DNA of 64,000 nucleotides from Candidatus Culexmicrobium thermophilum (GCA_025061095.1 JANZKB010000001.1:1078-65077); one strand, 5' to 3'; shown: positions 37,681-59,250, counted from the stretch's first letter. Notes: a model not told the origin generated them from the letters alone. Made by a program: numbers and translations.

Positions 37681-37791
37681 GCCGGGGTCGCCTAGCCTGG
37701 CCCAGGGCGCCGGACTCATAATCAGAAAGGATTGAGGGGTTAAGAAAACGGTGAATTCCGGTTTCCGCGGGTTCGAATCCCGCCCCCGGCA
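37681..37791 (+). tRNA. tRNA-Met (CAT) with ~35-nt intron at/near the anticodon loop
   Basis: acceptor GCCGGGG/CCCCGGC, anticodon stem CCGGA/TCCGG separated by CTCATA+intron, T loop TTCGAAT. Confidence 0.75.
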
Positions 37792-37805: not shown

Positions 37806-38060
37806 TTACACCATTAATTTCAAGCCATATTTAACGAAAAGTGGAAGTAAAGTTATGGAGACTATGCTCACTAATTTTATAAGTATATATAAGCTTGGGC
37901 CAGCACTGTCTTTTAATGGATCTCCTACAGTATCTCCAATCACTGATGATGCATGAGCTGGTGTGTCTTTACCTCCAAGAAGACCAGATTCTATAAGTTT
38001 CTTCGCATTGTCCCATGCACCTCCAGCATTGAACATAAATGTTGCAAGAATTGCTCCCAC
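37806..38060 (-). pseudogene. C-terminal fragment of membrane H+/K+-translocating pyrophosphatase (HppA)
   Basis: GGAWDNAKK...[22 protein letters not shown] matches the last ~80 aa of V-PPases; the remaining ~600 aa are absent. Confidence 0.6.
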
Positions 38061-38230: not shown

Positions 38231-39358
38231 CTAATCCTCGACTCGATTGGAAACTTTGAAGATTGCCCTCTCACGATATCCTGTAACTACTCGATAGTAT
38301 CCACTTAACTCTTTATCCAAAATCTCTGATCCTGTATCGACCAATAATGTCCTTCTACTCAAAGATCTAAGTTTATTTCTTGTCGAGACGATGATGATAT
38401 TATCTTTACCCACTTCCCTAATAACCTTTGGACTGATCTGCTGATTTCCCCTCCCAAAAAGATATCCCTGCCCACCTATGGGGGTGACTATAATCTTTGC
38501 CTTCCGACCTCTTATCGTCTCGAGAATCTCTTTCTCATTTAAATCTTTTCCAACCAGCTTTTTCTTATGAATGATATCTACTCCGAGTAGGGAATAATCC
38601 AGATTTAGAAACTCCATTATCACTTTTGTTGTAGTTCCAGGTCCAATTATATAGTAGTATTCATCAGACATCTCATCTAGGATCTCCGCTGCAATCTCCT
38701 CTTTATTATATCTCTCGCTCATAGGTGTAGTTGACTTGCTGCCTGAGGTATATCCACGTTTAACCGGAATCTTAAGATATCCATATAACCTTGTGGATAG
38801 TTTGCCTCTCCTGAATAGTTCTTCATCAATATCCAACACCTCCGCATCAACAACCTCCCTAATTTCCCCCATCAAAAACAACCTTGCAAGTTCCCCTGCA
38901 ACAACTGGATTAACTGCGAAGACAGCTGAGAAAACTTTGACCCCGGCAGGTATTCCAAGTACAACGAGACTTCGATCAATGGCATCATAGATATCTCTAG
39001 CAGTTCCATCTCCACCAACAAAGAGGAGGAGATCAACTCCTAGCACTCTCATTTCATCTGCAGCCCTCTTAGTATCCTCCGCAGTGGTCTTCTCCCCCTT
39101 TAATTCTCCGATCACTTTAGGGGTGAAGGAGCAGCTGAGAGAGGCGTTCTCACCCATCTTTTTAGGGTAGGTTATCAATTCCACCCTATCCTTTAGAAGA
39201 AGAAGCTGTTTCAACGCTTCTTTCGCTCTATCTTCAGCCCAAGGCTTCGCACCCAATTTCAACGCCATCTTCAAGGTCTCTTCTCCATCTGTTCCTTTAA
39301 GGCCGACTCTACCGCCCATTCCAGCGATGGGATTAATGATCAACCCTAACTTCTTCAA
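38231..39358 (-). CDS. NAD-kinase/diacylglycerol-kinase-fold protein
   Basis: LGLIINPIAGMGG N-terminal motif, GGDGT motif. Confidence 0.5.
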   Translation of the reverse strand: MKKLGLIINPIAGMGGRVGLKGTDGEETLKMALKLGAKPWAEDRAKEALKQLLLLKDRVELITYPKKMGENASLSCSFTPKVIGELKGEKTTAEDTKRAADEMRVLGVDLLLFVGGDGTARDIYDAIDRSLVVLGIPAGVKVFSAVFAVNPVVAGELARLFLMGEIREVVDAEVLDIDEELFRRGKLSTRLYGYLKIPVKRGYTSGSKSTTPMSERYNKEEIAAEILDEMSDEYYYIIGPGTTTKVIMEFLNLDYSLLGVDIIHKKKLVGKDLNEKEILETIRGRKAKIIVTPIGGQGYLFGRGNQQISPKVIREVGKDNIIIVSTRNKLRSLSRRTLLVDTGSEILDKELSGYYRVVTGYRERAIFKVSNRVED

Positions 39359-39395
39359 TTAAGATCCTCCAACGGCATATAGGAGGGATATATGA

Positions 39396-40961
39396 TTATT
39401 CCCACTTTTCACGCTTCTTCAGATATGCCCGCCAAGTAATCGCCCACCTCTCAGGATCTTCTAGGAACTCAGGGCGGATCTTATGGATTGGGCAATTGTG
39501 AGGAGCATTCTTAAGCTTCTCCGGCGTTTCATAAGCCTCTTCCACAACTCTCTTCAACGTTTCAAGATACTTGTCCAAGTCATCCTTCGAGTATGATTCT
39601 GTAGGTTCTATGGTGAATGGTTCTGGAATTATCCATGGATGATGGCTTGTCCAGAGATGGAAGCCGAAATCAGCCATTCTCCTTATAACGTCCTCTGATG
39701 TTATTCCAGTATCCTCCCTGAGCTTTTCAAAGCTATATCTCACTTGTTCAATACGTTGCTTCGTCTTTGGGAAGGAGATACTCGCACATTTCACCTCACT
39801 CAGAATCCTCTTCATAACATAATTATTATTTAACACCGCCACCCTCGCAACCTCCCTTATCCCCTCAGCTCCAAGACTCATTATCCAAGAATAAGCCCTT
39901 AGGATTACTGGAAAGACACCGTAGAACTCTCTAACCTTCCCAATGGAGTGTGACAGATCATAATTCAAATAATACTTTTCACCATTATACTCTACAATTG
40001 GAATTGGCAGAAAATCCACCAACCTATCTGTCACCCCCACAGCACCAACTGCAGGTCCACCACACCCATGAGGAGACGAGAACGTCTTATGCAAGTTAAA
40101 GAAGCCTAAATCGAAGCCGCAGTCCACCGCTCTAATAATTCCCAAAAGTCCATTTGCATTGGCCTGATCATATGCACACAATCCCCCCACACCATGCACA
40201 ATCTTTGTGAACTCCTTAATCCTTGGATTGAAGATCCCTGTATCCTCAGGATTCGTCACAATAAAGCCTGCTGTACGTTCAGAAACAGCTTTCTCCAATG
40301 CTTCAACATCAACCAATCCAGACTCGTTCGGATAGAGACTTATTACGCGATAACCCTTCACAGCTGGAGCAGCTGCATTGGATGGATGAGATAGCAATGT
40401 AGTTATGATCTCATCTCTCTTCTCCCCCTCACCTCTGAGCTCATGATATTTATGTATAATCGAGATTATGGTGAAGATGGCATGTGAGCCACCGCCGGGC
40501 TGAAATGTAAATCTGCTGAATCCGGAGAGCTCCCTCAAAAATAGATCCAGCTTATACATTATCTCAAGTGCACCTTGAATAGTATCCACATCTTGGAGTG
40601 GATGAAGTTCAGTGACCTTCGGAGAATTTGCTAAGAGATCATTTATTATGGGATTATACTTCATTGTACATGTTCCCTGGCCGATATCGATATTGAGGGT
40701 TGCACCCAAAGTCTCTTGAGATAGACGGAGATAATGCCTCAATACCCGTACCTGTGAGATCTCTGGAAGTCTAGGAGGATCCCTACGAATCATATGTTCA
40801 GGTAGGACTGAGACTCCGTCACCAACAAGCTCCTCAATCTCCTTCTCAACCTCTGGAACAATTATGCCACGCTCACCCTTCCTACTCAACTCAAAGATTA
40901 TCGGTTCACTCCATCTAGCCTCATGAAAATTTCTCAACTTGAAATCTCCTTTCCTCATCAT
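39396..40961 (-). CDS. gcvPB: glycine dehydrogenase (decarboxylating) subunit 2
   Basis: PLP-fold with NLHKTFSSPHGCGGP motif. Confidence 0.8.
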   Translation of the reverse strand: MMRKGDFKLRNFHEARWSEPIIFELSRKGERGIIVPEVEKEIEELVGDGVSVLPEHMIRRDPPRLPEISQVRVLRHYLRLSQETLGATLNIDIGQGTCTMKYNPIINDLLANSPKVTELHPLQDVDTIQGALEIMYKLDLFLRELSGFSRFTFQPGGGSHAIFTIISIIHKYHELRGEGEKRDEIITTLLSHPSNAAAPAVKGYRVISLYPNESGLVDVEALEKAVSERTAGFIVTNPEDTGIFNPRIKEFTKIVHGVGGLCAYDQANANGLLGIIRAVDCGFDLGFFNLHKTFSSPHGCGGPAVGAVGVTDRLVDFLPIPIVEYNGEKYYLNYDLSHSIGKVREFYGVFPVILRAYSWIMSLGAEGIREVARVAVLNNNYVMKRILSEVKCASISFPKTKQRIEQVRYSFEKLREDTGITSEDVIRRMADFGFHLWTSHHPWIIPEPFTIEPTESYSKDDLDKYLETLKRVVEEAYETPEKLKNAPHNCPIHKIRPEFLEDPERWAITWRAYLKKREKWE

Positions 40962-42379
40962 TTCGCTATGCCTCCCTCAATAATCTTCTTCAATGCATGG
41001 GCTAGGCGATCCAAACTCTCCTTCGTATGAAGCTCAGTAACACAGTATAAGGCGCTGGCACCTAACTCAGGAAATTTATCGGTGAGATCGATTCCACCGA
41101 AGATATTATAACTTAGCAGATTCCTGTTAATCTCATCAACCGAGAGAGAGGTGCCGTTGAAATCAACCACAAACTCTTTGAAATGTGGTGCTTTAAATCG
41201 CGGGGCTACAACACCTGGAATCTCGGATAAGAGTTTCATGGCATATTGAGATCTCTGCATTATCGTCTTACCAAGCATCTGCATACCATAAGGACCCATG
41301 AGAGAGAGATAGACTCCAGCGGTAATTCCCCATAATGCTGCAGCAGTGCCCACAAACTCCTTCGCCTTCTCCCGCCTCTCAAAGGAGGTCCTCTCAAATG
41401 CTACATCACCGAAACCATACTCACCATCAACAATGGTCTTAGTAATCCCGAAGAGACGTGAAGGATACTCCATCACAAACTTCTCCTCATCAGGAGTAGC
41501 GATGAAACCAGCTAAACCACCACCGAAATTCATATGAATCCCTAGAGGTTGAAGCTCACCGCAGACGATATCAGCATCATAACGACTGGGGGGAACGATT
41601 ACACCGAGAGAGATCGGATCAACACCAACAACAATCAGAGCATCAAACCTGTGGAGAGCATCGGATATCTCAGCGCCATGAGTCTCAATCGGACCAAGGT
41701 AAGATGGATTCTCAAAGTAGACTGCAGCAGTCTCCTCCGAGATCTTAGAATTTAAGTCATCCAAATCCATCATACCGGTCTCAGGATCATGCTTAACCAA
41801 CAAGATCTTCACAACAGGCTCACAATAATTTCTTATAATTGCAAGTCTCTCAGGGGAGATCGTGTCAGATATCAAAACTTCATCCCGCTTCGTGATCCTG
41901 CATGCCATTCTAATGGAGGTGGCGGCAGCCTGACCCCAACTATATGTTGGAACGTTAACAACATCCATCTCCACAAGTTCAGCGACCAAACTCTGATATT
42001 CGAAGAGAGCCTGCCACCTACCATGATCCTCCCACGGCTCACCGGCATATGCAGTCAAGAACTCCGATCTCCGATTGATCTCATCGCATATAGCAGGTAC
42101 ATAATGCTGCCAACATCCACCACCAAGAAAACTAACATAATCATCACACTCCCTATTTTTAGAGAGGATACCCTCAACATGACGCTTCAAATCTGCTTCA
42201 GACTGCAAGGGATCAGGCAGATTTAACACACCCTTAAACTTAAGCTCATCAGGGATGCTTGAGTAGAGTTGATCCATGCTCTCCACGCCTATCTCCCTCA
42301 GCATCTCTTTCTGGATATATGGAGAGGAGTTTGGGATATATGGATGAGCGCACTTCCTTTTAGACCTTTCATTCAACAT
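40958..42379 (-). CDS. gcvPA: glycine dehydrogenase (decarboxylating) subunit 1
   Basis: HPYIPNS N-terminal motif after internal Met; ATGA overlap with gcvPB. Confidence 0.75.
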   Translation of the reverse strand: MLNERSKRKCAHPYIPNSSPYIQKEMLREIGVESMDQLYSSIPDELKFKGVLNLPDPLQSEADLKRHVEGILSKNRECDDYVSFLGGGCWQHYVPAICDEINRRSEFLTAYAGEPWEDHGRWQALFEYQSLVAELVEMDVVNVPTYSWGQAAATSIRMACRITKRDEVLISDTISPERLAIIRNYCEPVVKILLVKHDPETGMMDLDDLNSKISEETAAVYFENPSYLGPIETHGAEISDALHRFDALIVVGVDPISLGVIVPPSRYDADIVCGELQPLGIHMNFGGGLAGFIATPDEEKFVMEYPSRLFGITKTIVDGEYGFGDVAFERTSFERREKAKEFVGTAAALWGITAGVYLSLMGPYGMQMLGKTIMQRSQYAMKLLSEIPGVVAPRFKAPHFKEFVVDFNGTSLSVDEINRNLLSYNIFGGIDLTDKFPELGASALYCVTELHTKESLDRLAHALKKIIEGGIAK

Positions 42380-42398
42380 ATGAATCAACCTCCTAAGA

Positions 42399-43154
42399 TC
42401 AAGCCAACCCTCCACCATCAACAACCAGGATCGCCCCTGTAACCCAACTTGAGAGATCACTCGCAAGGTAAAGAACCGCATTGGCAATGTCTTCAGGCTT
42501 CCCCACACGCTTAATCGGCCTATCAGCAGCCTCCTCCAAAAACTTATTTAAATCAACACCTAACTGACGGGCCTCACTTCGAAGAAGAGGCGTATCTACA
42601 TCTCCAGGACAGATACAGTTAACTCGAATCCCCTCCCTACCATGATCGATAGCCATAGCACGGGTAAGGTTGACAACCCCACCTTTAGAAGCACAGTAGG
42701 CTGCAGCTTTCGGACCGCCCTTTAATCCCCAACCGGAACCAATATTTATGATACAGCCGCCGCCACCCCTAACCATATAGGGAATGAAATGATGGGATGT
42801 AAGATAGATACCTTTAAGATTCACATCTAAGACTAGATCCCACTCCTCCTCACTCATCTCAACGACATTCTTCCTTACGATAACACCAGCACTATTTACA
42901 AGGATATCGATCCTCCCAAAATTTTCATAAACCCTCTCAGCCACCCTCTTACACTGAAGATTCGAAGTAATATCACAACGATAAAATCTCGCATCCACAC
43001 CAACCTCTTCAACTATCTTCAAAGCTTTTCTTCCCCCCTCCTCATCTATATCCAATAGGGCTATGTTCGCACCAGCCTCAGCCAGACGCTTAGCAACACC
43101 CAACCCTATCCCAGAAGCAGCACCAGTAACCACCGCAACCTTCCCATTTAACAT
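42399..43154 (-). CDS. short-chain dehydrogenase/reductase (SDR)
   Basis: GKVAVVTGAASGIG Rossmann motif, YxxxK. Confidence 0.75.
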   Translation of the reverse strand: MLNGKVAVVTGAASGIGLGVAKRLAEAGANIALLDIDEEGGRKALKIVEEVGVDARFYRCDITSNLQCKRVAERVYENFGRIDILVNSAGVIVRKNVVEMSEEEWDLVLDVNLKGIYLTSHHFIPYMVRGGGGCIINIGSGWGLKGGPKAAAYCASKGGVVNLTRAMAIDHGREGIRVNCICPGDVDTPLLRSEARQLGVDLNKFLEEAADRPIKRVGKPEDIANAVLYLASDLSSWVTGAILVVDGGGLA

Positions 43155-43442
43155 TACATGTTTCAATATCTCCTCAGAAACCATAAAATCACACTCCAAG
43201 ATTATATAAAGCTTAAAAGTTAATAACAATTAGTTTAATAATCCCTCAATATCAAATGATAGTGAATGAAGTGAAAGAAATGAAGATAATGATTATACAT
43301 GCTGAGAAGATGTGGTGGAAGATGATAAAACCTGTTAGAATGCCCTTAAAAGATGAAATCAACTCTAAGAATAAAAGAGACATAATACTTGCAGAATTAT
43401 TACGCTAGCATTTCCACCAAAATAAAAAATAGGCCTAACCGC

Positions 43443-43660
43443 TTATTTCGCTCCCCTTTTCAGTCACTTCTTCGGTTAGCGAATCGGTGACCGAAACTGG
43501 TTTTCGCTCACTTTTGGGTAGGAACAAGATTTTTGTTTCTGTCGCCCCGCTTACTTTTCGCTCACCTTCTCGCTCGGTTTCGGTCTCAATTTCGGTCTAT
43601 TTTCGGTCCCCTTTTCGCTCCCCTTTCAGCCCCCGCTCAGTCAATTTTTCGCTCATCTAG
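43443..43660. repeat. degenerate tandem array (8-9 copies) of a TTTTCG(C/G)TC(A/C)C unit plus an inverted repeat TTCGGT-N13-ACCGAA containing GGTGACC
   Basis: direct reading: ...atttcgctcccctttt...ttttcgctcactttt...cttttcgctcaccttctcgctcggtttcggtctcaatttcggtctattttcggtccccttttcgctcccc...tttttcgctcatc. Confidence 0.7.
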
Positions 43661-43756
43661 AAATATTAATAGAAGAATATAAACTTGGAAAAGCATCATC
43701 ATAAACAAAAAAGAGTAAACATTAGAAGATAAACCATAAAGAAAATAATAAAAAAG

Positions 43757-44109
43757 ATGAAGCCCCCCAAACCAGGTGGCGCATATAATCAAGCGGTGGA
43801 ATTTAATGGTCTCATCTTTGTCTCAGGACAACTGGCCAGAGATAAAGATGGAGGAGAGATAATTGAAGGCGACATAACAGCTCAAACAAAGAAGGTAATT
43901 CAAAACATAGAGAAGATACTTAAAGTAGCCGACAGCAGTTTAGATAACATACTGATGTCATTTGTATTCCTAAGAGAGAAAAGACTATTCGATAAATTCA
44001 ACGAAGAGTATAAGAAAAACTTCAAAAGGAATTACCAGCAAGAGTAACAGTCGGAGTAGAACTGGCTCCCAATGCATTGGTAGAAATCGCGGTCATAGCA
44101 CACAAATAG
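43757..44109 (+). pseudogene. ridA: RidA/YjgF-family deaminase gene with a 1-nt frameshift in an A-run
   Basis: frame 0 encodes PKPGGAYNQAVEFNGLIFVSGQ...; the C-terminal ...LPARVTVGVELAPNALVEIAVIA continues in another frame after 'aaaaacttcaaaagg'. Confidence 0.65.
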
Positions 44110-44413
44110 ATTAACAAAATAATGAAAAACAACAACCATTTCGCGGCTAGAATCGTAGAAAATAGAAGCATGAGTATAGCACTGAAAAAGCAGACGAAGA
44201 ACTTGAAGTAGCAATATGCATTAAAAACTCCGTTCCAGTATTGATAGCCGTAGCCACATCATTACCACATGGGATAGATGAACAGATATGAAGCTCAAGA
44301 TCTCTTCAGGATCCCCTCAAATGTAAACCTCTTGTCTAAAAATGTTCATGCCCTGAGAGAATGTAAAAAGTACAAATTATTTAACAATAGTAGTTTAAAA
44401 TATAAAACACGTA

Positions 44414-45424
44414 TTGTTAAGAGATTCTGTGGAGGGTGTGTTGGTGGTTAATTATTTTTTGGTTGCTGTTTCTAATAGGGAGAATTTGGGTTTGTGTTTG
44501 GATTTTGGTATGGCTGGTTTTCCTGGCAGTGTGAATGGTGTTTGGGCTTTTTGTGATGTTGAGGTTGGTGATTTTGTTTCTTTTCTTTACGCTGCTCATA
44601 TTTATAATCTTTATAGGGTTAGTGATAAGATGGCTATTTTGAGGGCTGAGGAGGCTCCTCCCTGGAAGCCTCTTGAGTTTAGGTCTGGTAGGGTTTATTA
44701 TTTTCCTTTTCGTTTGTTGCTTGAGCCTGTTCGTTGGTTTAGGGAGTCTTTGGTTCGTGCTGAGTTTGCCTATGTTGCTGAGAATTTATTGTTGCGTGGT
44801 GGTTATGCTAAGACTCATTTTCAGGCTGATCAGACGACTCTTCAGTGCGCATCTCAGTTAGGTGAGCTTGTTGAAAATTATTTGTTTAAGAGTGTTGACC
44901 TGAAGAAATATGGTGTTTTTACTCCGAAGTTTTCTCTGGATAAGAGTAGGGTGAATATGGTGGATGTCTATCCACTTAGGGAAATGATTTTACAGGCTTT
45001 GATAAGGAAGTATTTAAGTCAAGAAAATAATCTTGCCAGATTCCTAGAACTTATGGAAATTTCAGAAACTCAACCAAGATACTTGGAAGTATTGGGCGAG
45101 AAAGCTTTACCCGAAGGGCATGTAGATATTTTAATTAAGGAACGAACACCAATAGGCAAAGCAAAACTCATAATAATAGAAGTTAAAAGTGGCAGAGCTT
45201 ACCTAAGAGATCTAAAACAGCTTGAAAAATATAGAGCAGAGATCGGATCAGAATGTATTGGGGCATGCTTAATAGCAAAAGATTTTCCACGAAAAATAAT
45301 CAAATCTGAAAACAATATTAAACTACTCAAATATAATTTAGATATCATGAAAAATGAAGCCTACACCTTAAATCAACTACTCAAATCACTAACACTAATA
45401 AAAACAACAAAGCTAAAGCTATAA
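44414..45424 (+). CDS. PUA-like (EVE-type) domain fused to Mrr/NucS-like PD-(D/E)xK nuclease; predicted modification-dependent restriction endonuclease
   Basis: N-terminal ...VEVGDFVSFLYAAHIYNLYRV (EVE-like GD..FYxS strand pattern); C-terminal GHVDILIKE...LIIIEVKSGRAYLRDLKQLEKY (D...E-x-K); 5' ~570 nt uses NNT codons unlike host, 3' part host-like. Confidence 0.5.
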   Translation: MLRDSVEGVLVVNYFLVAVSNRENLGLCLDFGMAGFPGSVNGVWAFCDVEVGDFVSFLYAAHIYNLYRVSDKMAILRAEEAPPWKPLEFRSGRVYYFPFRLLLEPVRWFRESLVRAEFAYVAENLLLRGGYAKTHFQADQTTLQCASQLGELVENYLFKSVDLKKYGVFTPKFSLDKSRVNMVDVYPLREMILQALIRKYLSQENNLARFLELMEISETQPRYLEVLGEKALPEGHVDILIKERTPIGKAKLIIIEVKSGRAYLRDLKQLEKYRAEIGSECIGACLIAKDFPRKIIKSENNIKLLKYNLDIMKNEAYTLNQLLKSLTLIKTTKLKL

Positions 45425-45550
45425 ACAACATTACATACTATATTATCCATAAGAAGTTTGTTTAATGCTTCCCTCAAGTAAGCCATGGTTATGATATTGT
45501 AGATTAATTTAATCACCGCTAAAAAATTAAGGATCAGCAATATTAAATAG

Positions 45551-45853
45551 AGTAGTTTCCTTCATCTTCAAAATTGTCAGCTAGGAGGAATAACATATAA
45601 AAGATATTGGTGTATAGTTACGTCACCTGAAAACTGGGAAATATGTAAAAGAAATAATGTTTGGGGGATGAATGCAAGATATTATGTAACTCTTCAAAAA
45701 TTTCTGAAAACAGGAGGCCAAGCGGTAGTATATACTCATGGTGGAAAATTTGTCGCGGTTATGGAATTCATAGGTAACTGGTTCTATGAAGAAAAGGATA
45801 TAGGATGGACTAAAGGTAAAAGAATTTTTATTTCCGTACAGAATAAAGTTTAA
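45551..45853 (+). CDS. stand-alone EVE/PUA-like domain protein; no canonical start until ATG 45668 (possible pseudogene)
   Basis: in-frame translation from 45551: ...RYWCIVTSPENWEICKRNNVWGMNARYYVTLQKFLKTGGQAVVYTHGGKFVAVMEF...W...IFISV matches the EVE pattern; a GGAGG Shine-Dalgarno-like motif lies upstream but no ATG/GTG/TTG in frame. Confidence 0.45.
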   Translation, partial: SSFLHLQNCQLGGITYKRYWCIVTSPENWEICKRNNVWGMNARYYVTLQKFLKTGGQAVVYTHGGKFVAVMEFIGNWFYEEKDIGWTKGKRIFISVQNKV

Positions 45854-46265
45854 AATCCTTCATGAAGCTAAAACCTGTTAAAATATCTTATTCTATTGTA
45901 GAGGAAGGAAGTAAAGCAAAATGGATCAATCCTAATTTCATTGATGATATTACTTTTATTGCAGATAAAAGGAAAAACATGGAATCAGTATTTACAAGTT
46001 TCAATTATTAGAATAATGAAAGAGGATTTTGACACAATATGTGAAGCGATTAAAAGGAATTGACAAAAATATGCTTGCCAATGATATACTGAATAATCCA
46101 TATTGTGCATTAGTTTATTATTTTGATTACTTTGTTTAGTGTTTCTGCTTTGATGATGGATGCGCTGAGGCTGAAGATCTCTTCCCTTGTTATTATCATG
46201 TTGGGTGTGACTTCTTTAAATATTGAGGCTTTGATGTAGTAGCTCTTTTGATGCTTCTGTTCCTT

Positions 46266-46799
46266 CTAATTCTCTAATAGCTTTAAAATTCGTTCTCCAA
46301 GTTTTTGAGCTTCCTTCAGTGCTTCTTCATCTTTTAGGATGTCGCCTTTTTCGAATGCGTATCCTAGAATGCCTGGAATTTTAGTCATTTTCAATCTTGA
46401 TAGATATTCTTCTATTTCACCTATTGTGGAACCTATTTTTCTTCTTCCAACAACAATGTATGTGCCGATTTTTCCTTCGAGCTGCCCCTTTCTGAGGAAC
46501 CATGTTCTTTCCATGAAAGCTCGAAGCCTGGATGTTACACCTCCCATGTATGAAGGGCTGGACAGGATTATGACGTCGGCTTCTTTGAGCTTGGGGTATA
46601 GCTTTTGCATATCATCCTCTATAACGCATTGGTTGTTCTCCTCACAGTAATGACATCCCTCACAGGGCTTAATGTTATAATCCTTTAGAAAAATAATTTC
46701 TGTCTCATATTTTTTCTTAAGAATCTTCATAACTTCCTCAAGCAATTGTGCAGTGTTTCCATTCTTATGCGGAGAACCAATAATTCCAATAGCTTTCAT
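46266..46799 (-). CDS. NADPH-dependent FMN reductase / iron-sulfur flavoprotein (Isf-like)
   Basis: flavodoxin-like fold GIIGSPHKNGNT; CEGCHYC Cys motif. Confidence 0.6.
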   Translation of the reverse strand: MKAIGIIGSPHKNGNTAQLLEEVMKILKKKYETEIIFLKDYNIKPCEGCHYCEENNQCVIEDDMQKLYPKLKEADVIILSSPSYMGGVTSRLRAFMERTWFLRKGQLEGKIGTYIVVGRRKIGSTIGEIEEYLSRLKMTKIPGILGYAFEKGDILKDEEALKEAQKLGERILKLLEN

Positions 46800-46804
46800 A
46801 ACCT

Positions 46805-47560
46805 TTACTCCCTCATTTGGTTGATTATATGGAAACGGATACCGATGTAGAGAAACAAAGACAAATAGAGAACAAGAATTCCCACATTAACTAAAGGATG
46901 GAAAGTAGTCGTCTCTCCAAGCCCTTTCCTAAGCAATTCTATAGTATGAGTAAGGGGAGAGAAGAATGATATAATCTGTGCCCAAGACGGCAGATCCTTA
47001 ATTGGAATAAAGATACCGCTGATAAAGAGCAGGGGCAATCTGACAAAGTTCAGAGGCATCATAACTTGACCGGGATTCTGACCGGGGATTGAGGCAAACA
47101 TTATCCCCATGGTGGCAAAACAGAGGGCTGAGAGAACCATTCCAGCCAACAATGCTGCAAAATCACTTATTAGAGAATTGAAAAAGAAGAATCCGACGAT
47201 TATTGGGATGATGGAGATCAATAAACCATAAAGAAAGCCTGCAAACGTCTTGCCTAAAAGTACAGTAATAAGAGAAACGGGAGCAGCAAAAAATCGATCA
47301 AAAGTCTTAATTCTCCGCTCAAGAGGGATGGTTACAGGTCCAATAGTGGAAGAGGCGAAGAATAGCGTCTGAGCAACGAGAATTGGAATTGCACTATGGA
47401 CAGAGATCTTCCGACCTATCACAAAAGATAGAAACAAGGAGCAGGGAAAAAGAATACCAAAAACCAAGGAAGGAAACTTAACATAATAGATACGTATATC
47501 CTTCTCACTAATTGCCAAAGCAACACGAATCTCCCTTAAGAGACGCTTAGAAGTTATCAA
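46805..47560 (-). CDS. ABC-2 family transporter permease
   Basis: 6 TM segments; overlaps ATPase gene by 4 nt. Confidence 0.65.
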   Translation of the reverse strand: MITSKRLLREIRVALAISEKDIRIYYVKFPSLVFGILFPCSLFLSFVIGRKISVHSAIPILVAQTLFFASSTIGPVTIPLERRIKTFDRFFAAPVSLITVLLGKTFAGFLYGLLISIIPIIVGFFFFNSLISDFAALLAGMVLSALCFATMGIMFASIPGQNPGQVMMPLNFVRLPLLFISGIFIPIKDLPSWAQIISFFSPLTHTIELLRKGLGETTTFHPLVNVGILVLYLSLFLYIGIRFHIINQMRE

Positions 47561-48585
47561 GACTTCACCCCCTTATTACGTCCCATATCCCGCTTCTTCC
47601 TCTTCCAAGCAGATCCACCTTCAGACCTCTCAGACACCTCAGGTTCAACGCCTGTAAGCTCCAAGAACACGTCAGTTAAACTCGGTCCTAAAGTATTCAA
47701 AGTAATTATCTTCAAATTATTAGCTTTAACATAATCCCAGAGAGCAGAAAGCAGAGCAGAAGGTTCCTCAGTATATAATTTATATTTATCACCATACTTT
47801 ACAACACGAGTAACCGTTGGAAGCTTATTGAGATCACTTAGCAAACCATTAACCTCACGATAGAATGAGACCTCAACAGACTGAAGCCTCTTTGCGGTAC
47901 GCTTCAACCTCTCGGGAGTATCGATGGCCACTATCTTCCCCCTATTAATTATAGCCACTCTATCACACATCTGGTTCGCCTCCTCCAAATTATGAGTAGT
48001 AAGAAAGATCGTCAACCCCTCTTCATTCAACTTGCGAATCAAATTTCTTATCGTCAAAACACTCTGAACATCAAGACCAGAAGTAGGCTCATCCAAAAAT
48101 AAAACGGAAGAATCATTCATAAGAGCCATAGCTATACAGAGACGCCGCTTCATCCCTCTCGAGAAATTCTCAACCTTTACATTACGCTTATCATAAAGAT
48201 TAAATAACTTCAAGAGCTCCTCAGCCTTCCTCTCCCTTTCAGGCTTAGGAATGTCATAAAGCTTACCGATAAAAATCAAATTATCCCATGCAGACAACTC
48301 AGTATAAACATTCGAGATATCCGTAACTATACCAATCAATTCCTTAGCCTCTACAGACTGACGCTGAATATCAAAACCCATAATCTTCGCATAACCCTCA
48401 CTGGGCCTTGAAATACCCGTCAACATCCGAACCGTCGTCGTCTTCCCAGCACCATTAGGCCCAAGAAAACCAAAGATCTCCCCACACTTAACCTCAAAAC
48501 ATATATGATCAACAGCAAGAAGATCCCCATAATACTTCGTAAGATTAACCGCCTCAATAGCAGGCTCCGCAGAAATTCGACTCAT
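47557..48585 (-). CDS. ABC transporter ATP-binding protein
   Basis: Walker A GPNGAGKTT, signature LSRGMKRRL, Walker B LFLDEPT. Confidence 0.85.
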   Translation of the reverse strand: MSRISAEPAIEAVNLTKYYGDLLAVDHICFEVKCGEIFGFLGPNGAGKTTTVRMLTGISRPSEGYAKIMGFDIQRQSVEAKELIGIVTDISNVYTELSAWDNLIFIGKLYDIPKPERERKAEELLKLFNLYDKRNVKVENFSRGMKRRLCIAMALMNDSSVLFLDEPTSGLDVQSVLTIRNLIRKLNEEGLTIFLTTHNLEEANQMCDRVAIINRGKIVAIDTPERLKRTAKRLQSVEVSFYREVNGLLSDLNKLPTVTRVVKYGDKYKLYTEEPSALLSALWDYVKANNLKIITLNTLGPSLTDVFLELTGVEPEVSERSEGGSAWKRKKRDMGRNKGVKS

Positions 48586-48793
48586 AAATTTAATGCCTCC
48601 AATAAAAAGAAATAAATCATTATTTAACTAAATGGGCAAAAATATATTATTTTTGCCCATTCACCAAACCAACAACCGAAAAATTACAAAAATCAATCAA
48701 AACCGACAAAATTGACCATTATCACAGAACTAACCATAACAGGATCTATAAGAATAGAAGATAAGCAACTAGAGGAATTTTGAGGAATATACG

Positions 48794-49966
48794 CTAGAAA
48801 GTATTTACATCATACTTCACTAAACTCTTTAGAGACGCATCCTCACCTCTAAGTTGTAGATATGAGAATATGGAAAAAGCGACATAAGATATCCCTGAAA
48901 TTGTGAATGCTATAGGATAGCCGAATTTTTCTATAAGCAAACCAAATAAAATTAGAGAAGTGAATTCAATAATTCTCAGAGGTATGTGCAAGATTCCTAT
49001 ATCTATTGAAAGTGTCTCATGCCTATCCTTACTCACCTTTGCGATAATTGACTCATAAAAACGTGTTCCAAGACCACCTGCAATGGCTAAGGTAATCACT
49101 AAAACTGGCATAAACGATGGAAAATACGGCAAACTAATGCATGTAACAAGATATATGATACTTTGGATTACTGCACGCATAATGCTCAGTGAAAGTTTTA
49201 AGGTTCCGAAGATAGTAATAGAGGAGATTATATTGAACCCCATAAAGATTATTCCAATAAACATATAGTCATAACCCAATAACTCAGACATAAAGATCGG
49301 TAACACAAAAGAGGCTAACGGATATCTAGCTAAACTATTAAGAGCCAGTATCAAAGAAGTATACCAAAAATCCCTACTCCGACCCCTCGGGTCCAAAGAC
49401 TTCAAAACCCTAAACAAATCAAGCTTCACACGCCTTACACCAGCACTCCAAAGTAACGCTGTAGGGTAAAGAAGAAGCAATGAAGCAAGTATAAGTAAGA
49501 TAAAAGCAGCTCCAGCACCAATCAATGACATAATTAGACCAGTAACAGCACTTCCAAAAGCACCACCCAACGTAACAGTTGCAATCATCCGCGTAGCCTC
49601 TCCAGCCTCCTTATTAGGAGACAACAGATAGGTGGCGGTTCTACTCACAGCCCAATATGCCGAAACTGATATACCCTCCATAATCTTACCCACAGCAAAA
49701 TCGATAGGCGAACTAGCGAACAAATAGATGAAAGAAGCAGAGGAAAGAGTCAACCAATTTACCAAAAAAATTGGAGACCAACCGACCTGATCAGCTAAAG
49801 CTGCAAGTATAATCCTAATGAAAAGAAATACTAATGGAAGGATTGACATGATAACGCCGATTTCAGCTAAACTAACATTCCTATCCAACAAAACAAGTGG
49901 AATGGCAATTCCAAAACCACCTGAAACAAAACTCGTCAAGAAAGATGTGAGCAGCACTCTCCACAT
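48794..49966 (-). CDS. MFS-type transporter
   Basis: 12 predicted TM helices. Confidence 0.6.
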   Translation of the reverse strand: MWRVLLTSFLTSFVSGGFGIAIPLVLLDRNVSLAEIGVIMSILPLVFLFIRIILAALADQVGWSPIFLVNWLTLSSASFIYLFASSPIDFAVGKIMEGISVSAYWAVSRTATYLLSPNKEAGEATRMIATVTLGGAFGSAVTGLIMSLIGAGAAFILLILASLLLLYPTALLWSAGVRRVKLDLFRVLKSLDPRGRSRDFWYTSLILALNSLARYPLASFVLPIFMSELLGYDYMFIGIIFMGFNIISSITIFGTLKLSLSIMRAVIQSIIYLVTCISLPYFPSFMPVLVITLAIAGGLGTRFYESIIAKVSKDRHETLSIDIGILHIPLRIIEFTSLILFGLLIEKFGYPIAFTISGISYVAFSIFSYLQLRGEDASLKSLVKYDVNTF

Positions 49967-50155
49967 AATAAATCACCAAGACAAGAACTAAATACATAGA
50001 GGAAAGATATAAAACATTTATTGAATCATCTTTAAATAATATGCGATAACGGGTTTGAAGTAAAATATAATAATGTTTGGTGTTTTAACAAATTACTTAT
50101 TCTGAAATGAAGTTGGTATCCATCAAATGATAATTGAAAATATCTTTAGATAGCT

Positions 50156-52057
50156 TTACGTTTTAGTCTTCATTTGTTTCCAAATTATGAGGATAATTGT
50201 AATGCTTATTAGTGTTAGGATTATTGGCAGACCCATGGAGTAAATTGTAGATGTTGCCTTTCCTTTTTTGACTTCTAGGATTATTGTTTTGCTTGTGGCT
50301 TTTATATGGTTAACATCTCCTTTCCAGCTGGCTTTTAAATAGAAAATTCCTTCTGTTTGCGATGTCCATTGATAGGTGTAGGTTCCAGTTTGGTCTGTTT
50401 TTATCTCTGTTAGCTTGTTGAAGATCTTTCCATCTGTGGATTTTAGAATGTTTATTGTGGCTTGATTAATAGGTGGATTTATTTTTCCTGTTATAGTAAT
50501 GGTTTCACCTGTTGTAACTGTTGTTTTTGATGCTTCTATGGTTAGGGTGCTTTGAATTTTTAATATGGTTATGGTGTATGTGGTGGTTGCTCCATAGTGG
50601 TCTTGATCGCCTTCCCAGCTTGCTTCAATTACGTATTTACCTGGTGTCGGAGGCTTCCATGTGATGGAGTATTCGCCTTTCATATTGGTAGTTGTGATTT
50701 CAATGGTTGACCAGGATAAACCTTCGTTTATGGTATATCTTAATTTAACGGGGGCCATTGTGTGAGTTGGATTTATAGCTCCACTTATAACTACCTCTTC
50801 GCCAATGGTTATGTTTGATGGAAAAACTATGCATGTGATTGAGCTTGGTGACTTCTCTTCACCATTGGAATAACCTTTTGTTGATTGTTGGAATCTCCAG
50901 TCTGTATCGGAATTATTATCTTGGCCGTTTGGATACCTAGCCCAACACTGATCATCATTAGCAGTATCACTTTTTATGGGTGTTCGGTCCACCTCTCTAC
51001 CTTGAGCATCAAGCAATATTATGGATTCATCCTCATTGTCCAACCACTCTTGACCACGGCTATAAACATAATATCCATATGGTTCTATCACAGTTTCTTG
51101 AGGAATAGTTATGGTAACTGTCTCCCCATGGGTTGTAATTAATTTCCAATTGCTAATATCCACTGAATTTGAAGTTGGATTATAGAGTTCAACCCACTCC
51201 TCCACTGATAGAGATTTATCATTTCCAGGTGGGTTAGATTCAAACTCATTGATTACAATATGCTCTACTGCTTGAGTGGAAAAGGCCTCCAAATACAATG
51301 TATGTAGAACATCTGTAATGTAATTGACAGCAAGATTAAGTGATTCGCCACATCTATTTCTAAATATTGGATTGGACCAATTATAGTTTTGATCCATCCA
51401 TACACATGTCAGATTTCCGTCAACATCAAATGTCGTATCATATGCAAGTTTTACAGCTGCATCATATGCCGAGATAATGTCGAGGCTTCCATCAAAGGAG
51501 AGATAAATATTGAACTCTGAATCATAACTTGAAGTTCTTTGACTAACATACTCCTCATAATCACTGTGATGATGTTCCGCTCCCCAATCGGTATTAGCTC
51601 CCATAACATGACCAAACACGGCCATGTCAGCAATATAGTGACTCATAATCCCCACACACTTAGCTGCTTCAACATAATCTCTTTCCCTCAAAAAATTCAG
51701 AGCTTCATTATAGGTGGCGGCGACTCTAACTGCCGCTGAATCGTCGATTAGAACTTCATGCAAATTGAAATATATATGATGTAGGGCTGTGTCTCCAATA
51801 CCGTCAGGAACTTGGCCATTATCAGGTAACTCTGTTGCATATAAGTACATTGCAAGATTATCCAAGATATATTGCTTCTCTTCAATAGGCAACCAATCTA
51901 AAGCATGCTGGGCAATCCAATCATGAGTACCATACTTTGGATTTGAAGGATCATCACTAAAACCACCATTACTCCAAGCGGAAACTTGAACGAATGAGGA
52001 TACTGAAAGCAAAGATAGAAGAGGAATTAGAAATATGAGACGATTCATAGGAACCAT
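50156..52057 (-). CDS. secreted, membrane-anchored multidomain protein: Zn-dependent phospholipase C/S1-P1-nuclease-like domain + lamin-tail domain + Ig-like repeats + C-terminal TM anchor
   Basis: signal peptide; W-x-tH...H cluster; INEFESNPPGND...EWVELYN lamin-tail-like motif; repeated beta-rich modules; terminal hydrophobic helix + KTKT. Confidence 0.55.
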   Translation of the reverse strand: MVPMNRLIFLIPLLSLLSVSSFVQVSAWSNGGFSDDPSNPKYGTHDWIAQHALDWLPIEEKQYILDNLAMYLYATELPDNGQVPDGIGDTALHHIYFNLHEVLIDDSAAVRVAATYNEALNFLRERDYVEAAKCVGIMSHYIADMAVFGHVMGANTDWGAEHHHSDYEEYVSQRTSSYDSEFNIYLSFDGSLDIISAYDAAVKLAYDTTFDVDGNLTCVWMDQNYNWSNPIFRNRCGESLNLAVNYITDVLHTLYLEAFSTQAVEHIVINEFESNPPGNDKSLSVEEWVELYNPTSNSVDISNWKLITTHGETVTITIPQETVIEPYGYYVYSRGQEWLDNEDESIILLDAQGREVDRTPIKSDTANDDQCWARYPNGQDNNSDTDWRFQQSTKGYSNGEEKSPSSITCIVFPSNITIGEEVVISGAINPTHTMAPVKLRYTINEGLSWSTIEITTTNMKGEYSITWKPPTPGKYVIEASWEGDQDHYGATTTYTITILKIQSTLTIEASKTTVTTGETITITGKINPPINQATINILKSTDGKIFNKLTEIKTDQTGTYTYQWTSQTEGIFYLKASWKGDVNHIKATSKTIILEVKKGKATSTIYSMGLPIILTLISITIILIIWKQMKTKT

Positions 52058-52459
52058 GGTTAATCACATAGATTGAGAACTAAGCAAATAATTCTCTTCA
52101 ATTAATTTATATATTTTTACAAAATTAGTTATGTCGCCATATAAGGCTGAATTGAGCTATACTACTTATCGCTCCTGATTAAGGAAGAATTAAGAGTGCT
52201 TGAATAATAATGAATTAAAAATATTCTTTGAAAACTGTTTATCTCTTTAACGTGGAGAAATGCTCTTTAAGTTTAAGATCTACTTAGAGTTAAATTACGG
52301 TCTCATTCTCACCTTAACATGAACAAGTTAACAGTAAATTAGTAAGTAGATAAAGCTTCATGGCATTTAAGAGATAAAGGATCAATTCACCTAATAGGCT
52401 TCAAAATTTAATTTAAAAAAGCAAAGCTAAAATACATTTTGTAATTTAATGTTCACTGT

Positions 52460-53137
52460 ATGTTAACTGGAGACCCTCTCTCAAACGATCTCGTAGTAGG
52501 CTTAATTGTTGCTGTTCCCATACTTTTAGCTGTCACGTTAACTAAAAAGATAGGTGGCGGGTATTGTTGGGTTAATAGAAAGATCATCCATTTCAGCACA
52601 ATTCCAGCAGTATATGCCTATTTATACATTTTTAATGACATTTATATTTGGACTATTTTTGCTCTAGGTTTTGTACTATACACGTTGATTCCACACTTGA
52701 AGAATAGGGAGAAGGATTGGTTTCAAGTTAAAGGTAATTTTGGCGAAGTTTACTATTGTTTAATCTACTTGATTGTTGGATCAGTTTTCTTCTATATTAA
52801 TCGTCCATTAGCTGCTGTAGCTATGCTTCTAACCGCTATAGGTGATGGTATTACTGGAATTATCCGCTTCTTCCTTTTTAAGAGGAAGGAGGAAGCTATT
52901 TCACTATATGTCTCAACTGATCCAAATGTTCGAAAAGCTTGCAAAACCATTGCAGGTACATTGGGTTTTCTAGCTGTTGGGATTCCATTAACTGCTTTCT
53001 TTTTCGGAGTTTTAAAAGGAGTTATCATTACTTTAATTTCGGCAATTGCTGAAAAGCAGCATTTACTAGATGATAATCTTGCAATTCCAGCTACAGTTTT
53101 AATAACTTACTATATTATGTTACCGTTCCAGTTTTAA
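52460..53137 (+). CDS. polytopic membrane protein, polyprenol/dolichol-kinase-like
   Basis: 6-7 TM helices; AIGDGITGIIR motif. Confidence 0.35.
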   Translation: MLTGDPLSNDLVVGLIVAVPILLAVTLTKKIGGGYCWVNRKIIHFSTIPAVYAYLYIFNDIYIWTIFALGFVLYTLIPHLKNREKDWFQVKGNFGEVYYCLIYLIVGSVFFYINRPLAAVAMLLTAIGDGITGIIRFFLFKRKEEAISLYVSTDPNVRKACKTIAGTLGFLAVGIPLTAFFFGVLKGVIITLISAIAEKQHLLDDNLAIPATVLITYYIMLPFQF

Positions 53138-53218
53138 GCAACTTGAATATCGTTAACCATTTTATATTCTAACTTTCATGGACTAATTTAATCTGCCATT
53201 AAATTGTTGAAGGTTATC

Positions 53219-55408: not shown

Positions 55409-55480
55409 AGCCGGGGGAGGGATTTGAACCCCCGTATAGCGGATCTGCAGTCCGCCGCCTAACCACTTGGCTACCCCGGC
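55409..55480 (-). tRNA. tRNA-Cys (GCA)
   Basis: minus-strand cloverleaf: acceptor GCCGGGG, anticodon loop CTGCAGA, T loop TTCAAAT. Confidence 0.8.
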
Positions 55481-55509
55481 GACCGACGAGTAGTTGAATC
55501 TAAAATTAG

Positions 55510-56025: not shown

Positions 56026-56072
56026 ACTCCACTACTATTCAGCCTGTTATTAACATAGATTGAATATTAACT

Positions 56073-59086: not shown

Positions 59087-59250
59087 GGGGCCGAAATTTC
59101 GGGTTGGGACATATGAGAGCAATAAGCCGTAGCTCAGTAAGGGAGAGCGGCGGGCTCCAGAGCTTGCCAGCTTAAAGACCGATAAGGGATGATATAGCTC
59201 TGGAGCGCAGAGAAACCCGTTGGTCGTGGGTTCAAATCCCACCGGCCCCA
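59087..59250 (+). tRNA. tRNA-Trp (CCA) with two introns (one in acceptor stem/position 7-8 region, one in anticodon loop)
   Basis: exons GGGGCCG...TAGCTC AGTAAGGGA GAGC G GCGGG CTCCAG...A CCCGT TGGTC GTGGG TTCAAAT CCCAC CGGCCCC A CCA; 36-nt and ~53-nt intervening sequences. Confidence 0.7.

Follow-up and report, generated by a model that had tools for sequence, protein, structure and literature searches.

The DNA analysed here, which we call the window, is a stretch of 64,000 nucleotides from Candidatus Culexmicrobium thermophilum, and our focus is a 3-kb interval within it (43230-46265) that an initial annotation had described as a degraded integrated element or defence islet. The interval holds a non-coding array of 11-12-nt repeats, an intact nuclease gene and two dead genes, one for RidA and one for a stand-alone EVE protein (Table 1). 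It is bordered on one side by the divergent promoter of an SDR-GcvP operon and on the other by the end of an ABC-transporter/Isf unit, whose Isf-like product carries the Cys motif CEGCHYCEENNQC. The array, the frameshifted RidA, the intact EVE-like/nuclease gene and the EVE pseudogene had all been listed by the initial annotation and all were found, and the long non-coding stretches it described were confirmed as four gaps. All six population contigs (99.5-99.99% identical) contain the interval, and the lesions of both pseudogenes are identical across independently assembled metagenome contigs.

Table 1. Features of the interval 43230-46265 and its immediate flanks, in window coordinates.
Feature	Coordinates	Strand	Basis
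SDR gene, left flank, first of the SDR-GcvPA-GcvPB-NADK-like operon	42399..43184	-	Pfam adh_short_C2, 238.8 bits
Non-coding gaps	43185-43756, 44110-44443, 45425-45596, 46064-46265		
Degenerate tandem array, core TTTCG(C/G)TC, period 11-12 nt	43446..43654	+	Exact-match counts
RidA (YjgF/L-PSP) pseudogene	43757..44109	+	Pfam profile match after frameshift repair
Predicted promoter of the nuclease gene with its 5' leader, conserved with the ortholog	44391..44443	+	blastn block shared with L087
Keto (T>G) skew tract, from the 5' leader to codon ~170-180 of the nuclease gene	44425..44990	+	Base composition
Intact nuclease gene, 326 aa	44444..45424	+	
Pseudogene of a stand-alone EVE-domain protein, ~155 aa	45597..46063	+	Start codon lost, three frameshifts
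Second, weaker keto-rich tract, antisense into the Isf 3' end, containing a 28-aa ORF (46153-46239)	46100..46620	+	Third-position G/T
Isf-like FMN reductase, right flank, last of the ABC ATPase-permease-Isf unit	46266..46799	-	Pfam FMN_red, 91.7 bits

The RidA gene carries a -1 frameshift at about 44030-44033 which leads to a premature stop at 44045-44047, and the encoded product ends at residue 96, without the C-terminal segment that, as read from the sequence, bears the 'PAR' arginine. As encoded, the truncated reading frame scores 77.3 bits against Ribonuc_L-PSP (PF01042) and gives no full-length match in an intact frame; repair of one frameshift raises the score to 103.7 bits and extends the match to full length, over profile positions 5-120 of 121. 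The frameshift reported earlier is genuine, and all five contigs covering the site share it. RidA also contains a polymorphic C6/C5 run at 43763-43768, where two contigs (L002 and L003) have an extra -1 frameshift. The loss of the start codon from the EVE gene likewise holds, with three frameshifts in addition: aligned with intact genes, it lacks the start codon's G (after 45598), has lost 2 nt after both 45822 and 45873 and has gained 1 nt at 45967, and these lesions are the same in all contigs covering them. Once repaired, the EVE pseudogene matches Pfam EVE (PF01878) over profile positions 1-144 of 145 (29.7 bits, cut-off 23) and is 80% identical to intact 157-aa proteins. Its relatives are the stand-alone EVE proteins of the PH1033/UPF0310 type (PDB 1wmm; NCBIfam PRK00809), of which the window's copy is a dead example.

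The repeat array, described earlier as microsatellite-like, is also well supported. Nine of the 11 exact matches to TTTCGSTC in the window fall inside it, where 3.2 matches per 64 kb would be expected, and none of 100 shuffles contained as many as 11. Eight of the copies run in direct orientation and the ninth (43489-43496) is inverted, with the greatest density at 43556-43654. One 12-nt unit is missing from L002 and L003, and the copy number is variable within the population. The array pattern was not found in any other locus compared, its matches in IMG/VR were scattered singles that we treated as chance, and its DNA fold showed no excess over shuffles (z 0.25). A search of 43180-46300 against Rfam at a permissive threshold gave no match. 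Intergenic short repeats about one helical turn apart, with AT-rich DNA alongside (here 43660-43756), resemble iterons and archaeal origin recognition boxes (ORBs), and one could read the array as a replication origin of this type, with the skew sign change at 43.2-44.4 kb, from a keto-rich minus strand on the left to a keto-rich plus strand on the right, reflecting bidirectional replication. We give this reading almost no credence. The array has no initiator gene (Orc1/Cdc6 or Rep) beside it, and the ORFs scanned throughout the window yielded no Orc1/Cdc6 domain. Unlike iterons and ORBs, the array has no ORB-like sequence, is polymorphic in copy number and is missing from relatives. The plus-strand skew begins at 44425 rather than at the array, the intervening 43660-44413 being A-rich, and equivalent sign changes at 50.0-50.15 kb and near 54.5 kb are too closely spaced for origins.

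We found no integrase or transposase in the interval or at its edges, as had been noted before, and no tRNA at the edges; the nearest tyrosine recombinase (55498-56265) is 9 kb away beside tRNA-Cys. A search of the flanks for direct repeats, which had been put forward as a check on the island, returned a pair at 43150/45427 (21 nt, 76%) that is at chance level. An inverted pair that brackets the interval (43244/46213; 16 nt, 81%) was rejected, sharing nine exact bases with a chance estimate of about one in ten. No repeat of at least 12 nt is common to the stretches at 37.4-38.3 kb and 53.9-57.5 kb that surround the tRNA regions at 37.7 and 55.4 kb, and no repeats resembling attachment sites were seen to connect these two regions. 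A genome scan anchored on GcvPA showed that the SDR-GcvPA-GcvPB-NADK order is conserved in 80 genomes, none of which has RidA, the nuclease, EVE or Isf beside the cluster; the scan yielded no close relative. The nearest genomes are at most 78% identical in amino acid sequence and share nothing with the window past the SDR gene. In a metagenome scan that took the SDR protein as anchor, generic SDR motifs dominated the output; the best match was 77% identical, and not even the identical contigs were recovered. One closer relative, L087, is 83.7% identical in nucleotide sequence over the nuclease gene, with other DNA on both sides, and has only this gene and a PLC-like gene in common with the window. 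Because the relatives are at most 78% identical in amino acids, presence and absence do not define insertion boundaries, and the patch may have been acquired recently. The longest low-GC run in the window, as seen in windowed GC, is at 45000-46250 (GC 0.30-0.32, at or below the 3rd percentile), which is compatible with foreign DNA. The RidA and EVE pseudogenes, the 3' half of the nuclease gene and Isf follow the genome's ordinary A-ending codon usage. These data support the view of the interval as a gene-decay zone with lineage-specific content, and this much of the earlier description stands; the integrated element or defence islet it proposed does not find the integrase, attachment repeats, edge tRNA or viral, plasmid or phage copies of the intact gene that would go with it. 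The interval is a lineage-specific patch, not recognisable as an integrated element, and is in itself ordinary, consisting of pseudogenes and a minisatellite at a variable chromosomal spot around one live gene.

That live gene shares with its L087 ortholog a blastn block running from 44391 to 45428, which takes in a TATA-like TTTAAAAT at 44394-44401 and GGAGGG at 44431-44436; the putative promoter is assigned by comparison with the TATA consensus of archaea. In the product, the N-terminal domain (about residues 1-140) is PUA-like, of the EVE/YTH-like kind, and the C-terminal domain (about residues 175-326) is NucS-like with invariant D228, E246 and K248. The 326-aa protein combines the restriction-endonuclease-like fold and D ... 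E-x-K triad by which the PD-(D/E)xK superfamily is recognised. The EVE-nuclease gene seen by the initial annotation is intact, with an N-terminal domain that is EVE-like and falls below the whole-domain gathering threshold of Pfam EVE (PF01878), and the PH1033/UPF0310 EVE proteins are relatives of this domain at the level of fold only (hhalign probability 3.7%). We rejected the identification of the protein as NucS itself, as the NCBIfam NucS model scores 19.1 bits against a cut-off of 216 and matches residues 218-267 only. The PDB profile matches in the NucS comparison have E values of 0.1-0.2, and the N-terminal domain is of a different fold class (EVE/YTH-like) from that of the NucS/EndoMS mismatch endonuclease (PDB 2vld, 5gke; PMC8228993). 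A hydrophobic ORF in an alternate frame at 44673-44861, within the skew tract, was discounted as a gene and regarded as a by-product of T in third positions, and its start is not conserved in L087.

The family to which this nuclease belongs yielded only 223 matches among 1.84 billion cluster representatives at 50% identity, nearly all of them about 320 aa long or fragments; about a dozen clusters of proteins of about 185 aa match profile positions 141-322 only. Its members are found in Bathyarchaeia, Dehalococcoidia and other uncultured lineages, are 50-55% identical between the Bathyarchaeia and Dehalococcoidia, and are labelled 'hypothetical' by every source that names the family. Homologs are absent from 2.9 million viral contigs (IMG/VR), 72,556 plasmids and 50,697 phages, and PADLOC gave no meaningful match for the gene (best E 0.013). 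The family is compact, about 320 aa in length, slowly evolving and chromosomal. Four of the ten neighbourhoods examined are concerned with DNA repair or nucleotide metabolism: in L174 and L175 the gene follows YebC-RuvC-RuvA with UvrB two genes downstream, and in L176 and L178 it follows ribonucleotide reductase, with NrdR upstream in L178. Three of ten are defence-like, and among the neighbours seen are an adjacent N6/N4 methyltransferase in L171, Mrr_cat nearby in L172 and L173, and HepT/MNT in L089; in L177 the gene sits among housekeeping genes. In other genomes RuvC-RuvA, UvrB or ribonucleotide reductase is as frequent a neighbour as a methyltransferase or Mrr.

The presence in one protein of a PUA-like base reader (EVE/YTH-type) and a NucS-type PD-(D/E)xK cutting domain suggests a mode of action in which the reader would flip a modified or damaged base into a pocket and the nuclease domain would then cut the DNA nearby. 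The same design is seen in characterised modification-dependent enzymes (PMC6765204, PMC7897488, PMC7641849), and the locus may instead be a degraded defence islet, in which a type IV modification-dependent restriction nuclease was acquired horizontally with the stand-alone EVE gene and RidA and EVE later decayed. This is consistent with the methyltransferase, Mrr_cat or HepT/MNT genes that adjoin some family members, with an intact EVE homolog (L179) found in a cobalamin operon with HepT/MNT genes on one side and HicB on the other, with the low GC of 45.0-46.25 kb and with the differing flanks of the nuclease gene in L087. We nonetheless regard it as unlikely, if worth serious consideration, given the poor PADLOC score, the missing viral, plasmid and phage homologs, the unusually high sequence conservation of a very compact family, the repair and nucleotide-metabolism surroundings in L174-L178 and the lack of mobility genes and junction repeats. 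The known restriction endonucleases that pair a PUA-superfamily domain with PD-(D/E)XK, the YenY4I group, and the EVE-HNH enzyme VcaM4I (PMC6765204, PMC7897488) resemble the window's nuclease in having a base-flipping PUA/EVE/YTH-fold reader joined to a nuclease domain and in being encoded by a single gene, usually without an adjacent methyltransferase. They differ from it in that it has no detectable sequence relationship to them or to Pfam EVE, has a NucS-like nuclease half and frequently has repair-gene surroundings, and defence genes typically form families that are much less conserved and less compact than this one. We favour a role in genome maintenance over that of an arms-race restriction enzyme, as the family is tightly conserved, chromosomal and absent from viruses and plasmids, and often lies beside RuvC-RuvA, UvrB or ribonucleotide reductase.

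The initial annotation had also assigned foreign codon usage to this gene. The anomaly is real, although confined to the first ~170 codons and not the signature of a donor. Over the skew tract the base composition is A 0.18, C 0.12, G 0.29 and T 0.42, and the third positions in it contain only 5% A and 4% C. At the four-fold sites of codons 1 to ~170 we counted 56 T, 3 G, 3 C and 1 A, and the third-position G/T fraction is 0.96-0.98 in this part before dropping to 0.19-0.34. The most extreme 300-nt G+T value in the window (0.753) is located here, at 44423, and the onset of the skew, at about 44425, is roughly 25 nt past the TATA-like box, so that the untranslated leader is included. The second, weaker tract has third-position values of 0.69 and 0.65 in plus-strand orientation. 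The same bias is present in weaker form in all the transcription units that lie between 38.2 and 54.5 kb; in the SDR operon third-position G/T is 0.80 at the 5' end and declines along the operon to about 0.5, and non-coding DNA at 48660-48745 is likewise G/T-rich on the transcribed-sense strand. The tracts disregard gene boundaries, running antisense into the 3' ends of the Isf, PLC-like and M24 peptidase genes. It is difficult to reconcile a foreign origin with these flanking 'housekeeping' operons, which carry the same bias more weakly, or with the L087 ortholog (84% identical), which shares the tract in another context.

Third positions differ between the window and L087 by about 10% inside the tract and about 40% outside it, and two independent sequences each at about 95% bias would differ by about the former amount. 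Amino-acid replacements specific to these two sequences run 14:3 towards G/T-richer codons in the N-terminal half of the nuclease and 0:0 in the C-terminal half; in the SDR operon the ratio is 95:57, with K>R accounting for 19, compared with 0.8-1.4:1 in four control lineages. The orthologous operons of relatives are unskewed, and within the same window the skew is not present in the two thermosome genes, TFB or Nop5. The unskewed thermosome genes led us to reject expression level as the sole cause. Similar skewed domains occur in L015 and L171 over genes of both orientations, and a process acting on the DNA strand, such as replication or import, accounts for these better than transcription does.

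We read the codon usage of the first half of the nuclease gene as probably not foreign; in it, a strand asymmetry anchored at promoters, which affects all transcription units between 38.2 and 54.5 kb, would reach its greatest strength. On this reading, the strand leading 5' to 3' away from each promoter region is pushed towards T wherever coding permits and towards G elsewhere, an effect that decays over 0.6-5 kb. Damage to the exposed non-template strand would be the most likely cause, through conversion of C to U and of A to hypoxanthine and through purine loss with A inserted opposite the gap. The preponderance of T over G at four-fold sites means that transversions to T are needed besides deamination. 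Human genes have an excess of T and G at their 5' ends, and the heavy strand of vertebrate mitochondria shows gradients of skew. Transcription-associated asymmetry, with C-to-T change on the non-transcribed strand, is also known in E. coli (cited in PMC12999951). The tracts resemble such asymmetry in the gain of T and G on the sense strand, the anchoring at transcription starts, the decay with distance and the effect on non-coding transcribed DNA; they depart from it in being far larger, with 95-97% G/T at third positions, in being limited to a 16-kb neighbourhood and in being missing from genes that are presumably highly expressed. The contigs carry hydrothermal-vent and Guaymas Basin labels, from which we assume a thermophile. 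Our proposal, which we make tentatively and with less than even confidence, is that the tracts are the footprint of unusually strong, promoter-anchored, strand-specific mutation in one lineage of archaea from hydrothermal sediments, arising from damage to the displaced non-template strand, possibly within R-loops on poorly translated transcripts. Over the few hundred bases that follow some transcription starts, such a process would turn almost all free sites to T or G, would reshape the protein (I to V, K to R) and would persist in two lineages separated by about 40% neutral divergence.

A mosaic gene might look similar, if a G/T-rich 5' half had been recombined from a strongly strand-asymmetric donor replicon and joined to an A-rich 3' half, with the skewed neighbouring operons imported in like manner. 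The composition does shift rather abruptly, over codons 150-200 and close to where the two domains meet, the ~185-aa proteins that match only the C-terminal part of the profile would suit such a join, the orientation-independent domains of the related thermophile contigs L015 and L171 could represent donors, and where the skewed 16-kb domain begins on the left, a rearrangement is marked by an H+-PPase remnant (37806-38060). Against this, the tract is equally extreme in two lineages that are about 40% diverged at neutral sites elsewhere in the gene, which means that some force must maintain the skew; it begins at the predicted transcription start rather than at a domain or gene boundary, it declines gradually along whole operons, and the closest relatives of the SDR-GcvP operon are the expected archaeal lineages and are unskewed. 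We consider a mosaic origin improbable. Selection acting on RNA, favouring G/U-rich and A/C-poor 5' regions of mRNA, for instance to evade endoribonucleases or to bind protein, would account for a tract that begins at the predicted transcript 5' end, leader included, and that moves with the nuclease gene into another genomic context. It is very improbable in our estimation, given the mirror-image antisense tracts inside the 3' ends of convergent genes, the amino-acid composition that is pulled along, decay lengths that vary from 0.6 to 5 kb, and an RNA fold of the skewed 5' region that is no better than shuffles (z 0.33). Strand-specific mutation remains our preferred, if tentative, account of the tracts.

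Considering the locus as a whole, we lean slightly towards a picture in which the interval is a decaying patch of accessory DNA around one live gene, the nuclease serves genome maintenance and the skew is a promoter-anchored strand asymmetry. The intact gene defines a compact, highly conserved and unstudied family of EVE-like/NucS-like nucleases, and its repeated siting after RuvC-RuvA, near UvrB or behind ribonucleotide reductase marks it as a candidate repair nuclease of the base-reading kind. The skew, which is the unusual feature here, is a strand asymmetry of near-mitochondrial strength that the initial annotation mistook for foreign DNA; it is limited to the few hundred bases that lie downstream of promoters, and composition-based detection of islands can be badly misled in genomes of this kind. 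If the skew is mutational, it may offer, for an unculturable organism, a natural read-out of strand-specific DNA damage.

The interval between the SDR and Isf genes is an ordinary gene-decay patch, notable for a conserved, uncharacterised EVE-like/NucS-like nuclease and for an extreme, promoter-anchored compositional skew. The features seen in the initial annotation, namely the repeats, a frameshifted RidA gene, a start-less EVE paralog and an intact nuclease gene, were all confirmed. Since six independently assembled metagenome contigs (ENA, JGI) carry the locus at 99.5-99.99% identity, an assembly or sequencing artefact is excluded. The source is an uncultured archaeon whose GcvPA shares no more than 78% identity with that of Ca. 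Baldrarchaeota and 76-77% with those of Bathyarchaeota MAGs. Introns are found in three tRNAs of the window; Rfam tRNA matches of 100-120 nt, missed by ARAGORN and presumably intron-containing, lie at 24458-24559, 37681-37791 and 59126-59246.

Features of the interval and of its surroundings
Feature	Position	Strand	Remarks
H+-translocating pyrophosphatase (H+-PPase) remnant, 84 aa, C-terminal	37806-38060	-	flanked by the intron-containing tRNA at 37681-37791 and the NADK-like 3' end
SDR gene	42399-43184	-	first of four-gene operon SDR, GcvPA, GcvPB, NADK-like
RidA pseudogene	43757-44109	+	-1 frameshift at ~44030-44033
Nuclease gene, 326 aa	44444-45424	+	intact
EVE pseudogene	45597-46063	+	remnant of a stand-alone EVE protein, ~155 aa
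28-aa hydrophobic ORF MMDALRLKISSLVIIMLGVTSLNIEALM	46153-46239	+	inside second keto-rich tract; 'partial gene' in one metagenome annotation
Isf-like FMN reductase			right flank; its stop codon is the right end of the interval
Tyrosine recombinase, 255 aa (Phage_integrase + SAM-like N-domain)	55408-56265 (with tRNA)	-	directly upstream of tRNA-Cys

When repaired, RidA matches Ribonuc_L-PSP from end to end (103.7 bits); as encoded it ends at residue 96 and its C-terminal segment is lost. The -1 frameshift is present in all five contigs covering the site, and in two contigs the C6 run (43763-43768) is frameshifted as well; the gene is dead and its decay is ongoing. The repaired EVE reading gives a full-length Pfam EVE match above the cut-off, and the product shares 80% identity with intact proteins of 157 aa. 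Nucleotide alignment with two intact genes reveals four lesions: the G of the ATG is lost, 2 nt are deleted at each of two sites and 1 nt is inserted.

Exact matches to TTTCG(C/G)TC number 11 in the whole window, compared with ~3.2 expected and with none of 100 shuffles reaching 11, and nine of them lie at 43446-43654 within the 572-bp gap between SDR and RidA. The copies are spaced by 11-12 nt, in tandem over 43556-43654, and one 12-nt unit is missing from two population contigs, as in a minisatellite prone to slippage. No Rfam family matches the array, no excess structure was found in it, and it is absent from all other loci compared. Such repeats could be read as a replication origin, but no initiator gene was found among the window ORFs scanned, 770 bp separate the array from the start of the skew, and comparable changes of sign appear again at intervals of a few kilobases.

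Neither an integrase nor a tRNA nor a junction repeat was found to mark 43185-46265, which bears out the earlier remark that no integrase or attachment-site duplication is visible. In the suggestion of a degraded integrated element or defence islet, the degradation holds, as gene decay around a retained gene, and integration is accompanied by none of these marks. Direct repeats between the tyrosine recombinase region and 37.4-38.3 kb were not found. The interval's genes adjoin the SDR-GcvP cluster in none of the 80 genomes that have it, all of them too distant to define boundaries. The order SDR/GcvPA/GcvPB/NADK-like (38231-43184 in the window; L007-L086) is kept in Bathyarchaeia, Asgard archaea, Korarchaeia, Aminicenantes, Clostridia and Paenibacillus, and differs from the classical gcvTHP arrangement. 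The only closer relative, L087, has in common with the window an ungapped 1038-bp block (83.7% identity) extending from 53 nt upstream of the nuclease start codon to 4 nt past its stop, and its DNA on both sides is unrelated save for the PLC-like gene further downstream. The neighbourhood is therefore fluid, with the nuclease gene persisting as its surroundings change. GC content reaches its lowest values in the window at 45.0-46.25 kb. We conclude that the interval is a zone of gene decay surrounding one retained gene, compatible with acquisition or without it. Further right, population contig L003 differs from the window by ~20 SNPs and indels in all, densely clustered at 48522-48693 (ABC ATPase 5' end and upstream region), which resembles a tract acquired by recombination from a diverged allele.

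The nuclease gene had been credited with foreign codon usage, a reading we do not uphold, as its skew is common to the ortholog and to neighbouring transcription units and mimics foreign DNA. Four-fold sites in codons 1-150 hold T 56, G 3, C 3 and A 1, and two-fold sites hold G 35 and A 3 (purine) and T 40 and C 2 (pyrimidine); A is absent from the first 90 third positions (probability ~4e-18 at a background A3 of 0.36). In codons 190-326 the A-ending usage normal for this genome returns. The tract starts at ~44425, ~25 nt past a TATA-like box kept in L087, and includes the untranslated leader. The L087 ortholog bears the same tract, with third positions differing by ~10% inside it and ~40% outside. 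Because ~10% is the expectation for two independent sequences held at ~95% bias, a force must be keeping the tract up in both lineages. Mosaic import of the 5' half would account for the sharp change close to the domain boundary, but the tract is maintained in two lineages and begins where transcription is predicted to start. Amino-acid replacements confined to the window and L087 run 14:3 toward G/T-richer codons in the N-terminal half and 0:0 in the C-terminal half. No skew of this strength occurs in the other homologs examined, L171 alone having a mild 5' elevation (0.74 to 0.38).

Throughout 38231-54523, a contiguous 16-kb domain, all transcription units are G/T-rich at third positions at the 5' end and decay toward the 3' end, from 0.80 to 0.5 in the SDR operon and from 0.94 to 0.3 in the ABC ATPase, permease and Isf genes, with the same decay in the MFS, PLC-like and M24 peptidase genes. 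The left edge coincides with the H+-PPase remnant, a rearrangement breakpoint. The skew is missing from genes at 1-37 kb and 55.5-64 kb, among them two thermosome genes, TFB and Nop5; expression level as its sole cause is ruled out by the unskewed thermosome genes. Oriented to the + strand, third positions form a sawtooth with sign changes at intergenic promoter regions, and the skew crosses gene boundaries, extends in antisense into the Isf, PLC-like and M24 genes from their 3' ends and is also present in transcribed non-coding DNA. Replacements in the SDR operon are 95:57 toward G/T-richer codons (K>R, n = 19), compared with 0.8-1.4:1 in four control lineages, and the relatives' orthologous operons are unskewed. 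Selection at the RNA level is argued against by the antisense mirror tracts and by the amino-acid drift. Given the tract kept in the ortholog, the sawtooth, the non-coding skew, the protein drift and the unskewed relatives, we argue for DNA-level, strand-specific mutation pressure rather than a donor signature or translational selection. The spectrum, T where possible and otherwise G, would require changes to T plus A->G, and deamination and depurination of the exposed non-template strand may be its source. Multi-kilobase domains with a T/G-rich strand at four-fold sites, in either gene orientation, also occur in the related contig L015 (10939-15965) and in two loci with nuclease family members (L171, 9514-11290; L089, 1680-4366), archaeal contigs mostly from hydrothermal sediments, with + strand keto of 0.73-1.00; the both-orientation domains in L015 and L171 are more readily explained by imported DNA or by a process akin to replication than by transcription.

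The AlphaFold2 model of the nuclease (47-sequence alignment as input) has a pLDDT of 92.8; sequence models gave a weak NucS_C signal only, and none for EVE. The family has more than 1166 homologs, labelled 'hypothetical' by every source that names them, with 50-55% identity between Bathyarchaeia and Dehalococcoidia. When 1.84 billion cluster representatives were searched exhaustively with an HMM, only 223 proteins were found, in essence a single architecture and fragments of it, and the family is compact and slow-evolving. Among them (P0286-P0310, P0261), about a dozen clusters of ~185-aa proteins match only profile positions 141-322, the C-terminal half, and a few ~157-aa proteins the N-terminal half alone; these may be split-gene forms, stand-alone forms or fragments.

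The nuclease has the same architecture as modification-dependent restriction enzymes, from which the PUA-plus-nuclease design is known (PMC6765204, PMC7897488, PMC7641849). Whilst this would fit a defence islet, the family's conservation, neighbourhoods and absence from mobile elements argue against one: IMG/VR, PLSDB plasmids and GenBank phages hold no representative, and a PADLOC search gave no meaningful match. The neighbourhoods are mixed. In one bacterial lineage (L174, 5102-7987; L175, 1-2886) the homolog lies 44 nt after YebC-RuvC-RuvA on the same strand, the position usually occupied by ruvB, with UvrB two genes downstream. Two Dehalococcoidia have it after ribonucleotide reductase (with NrdR upstream in one of them, L178), and a Bathyarchaeota MAG among plain housekeeping genes; one homolog adjoins an N6/N4 methyltransferase, and others have Mrr_cat close by, HepT/MNT or a terminase. 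Owing to the conservation of the family and the repair-type neighbourhoods, we consider a genome-maintenance nuclease that would read a modified or damaged base to be the more likely role.
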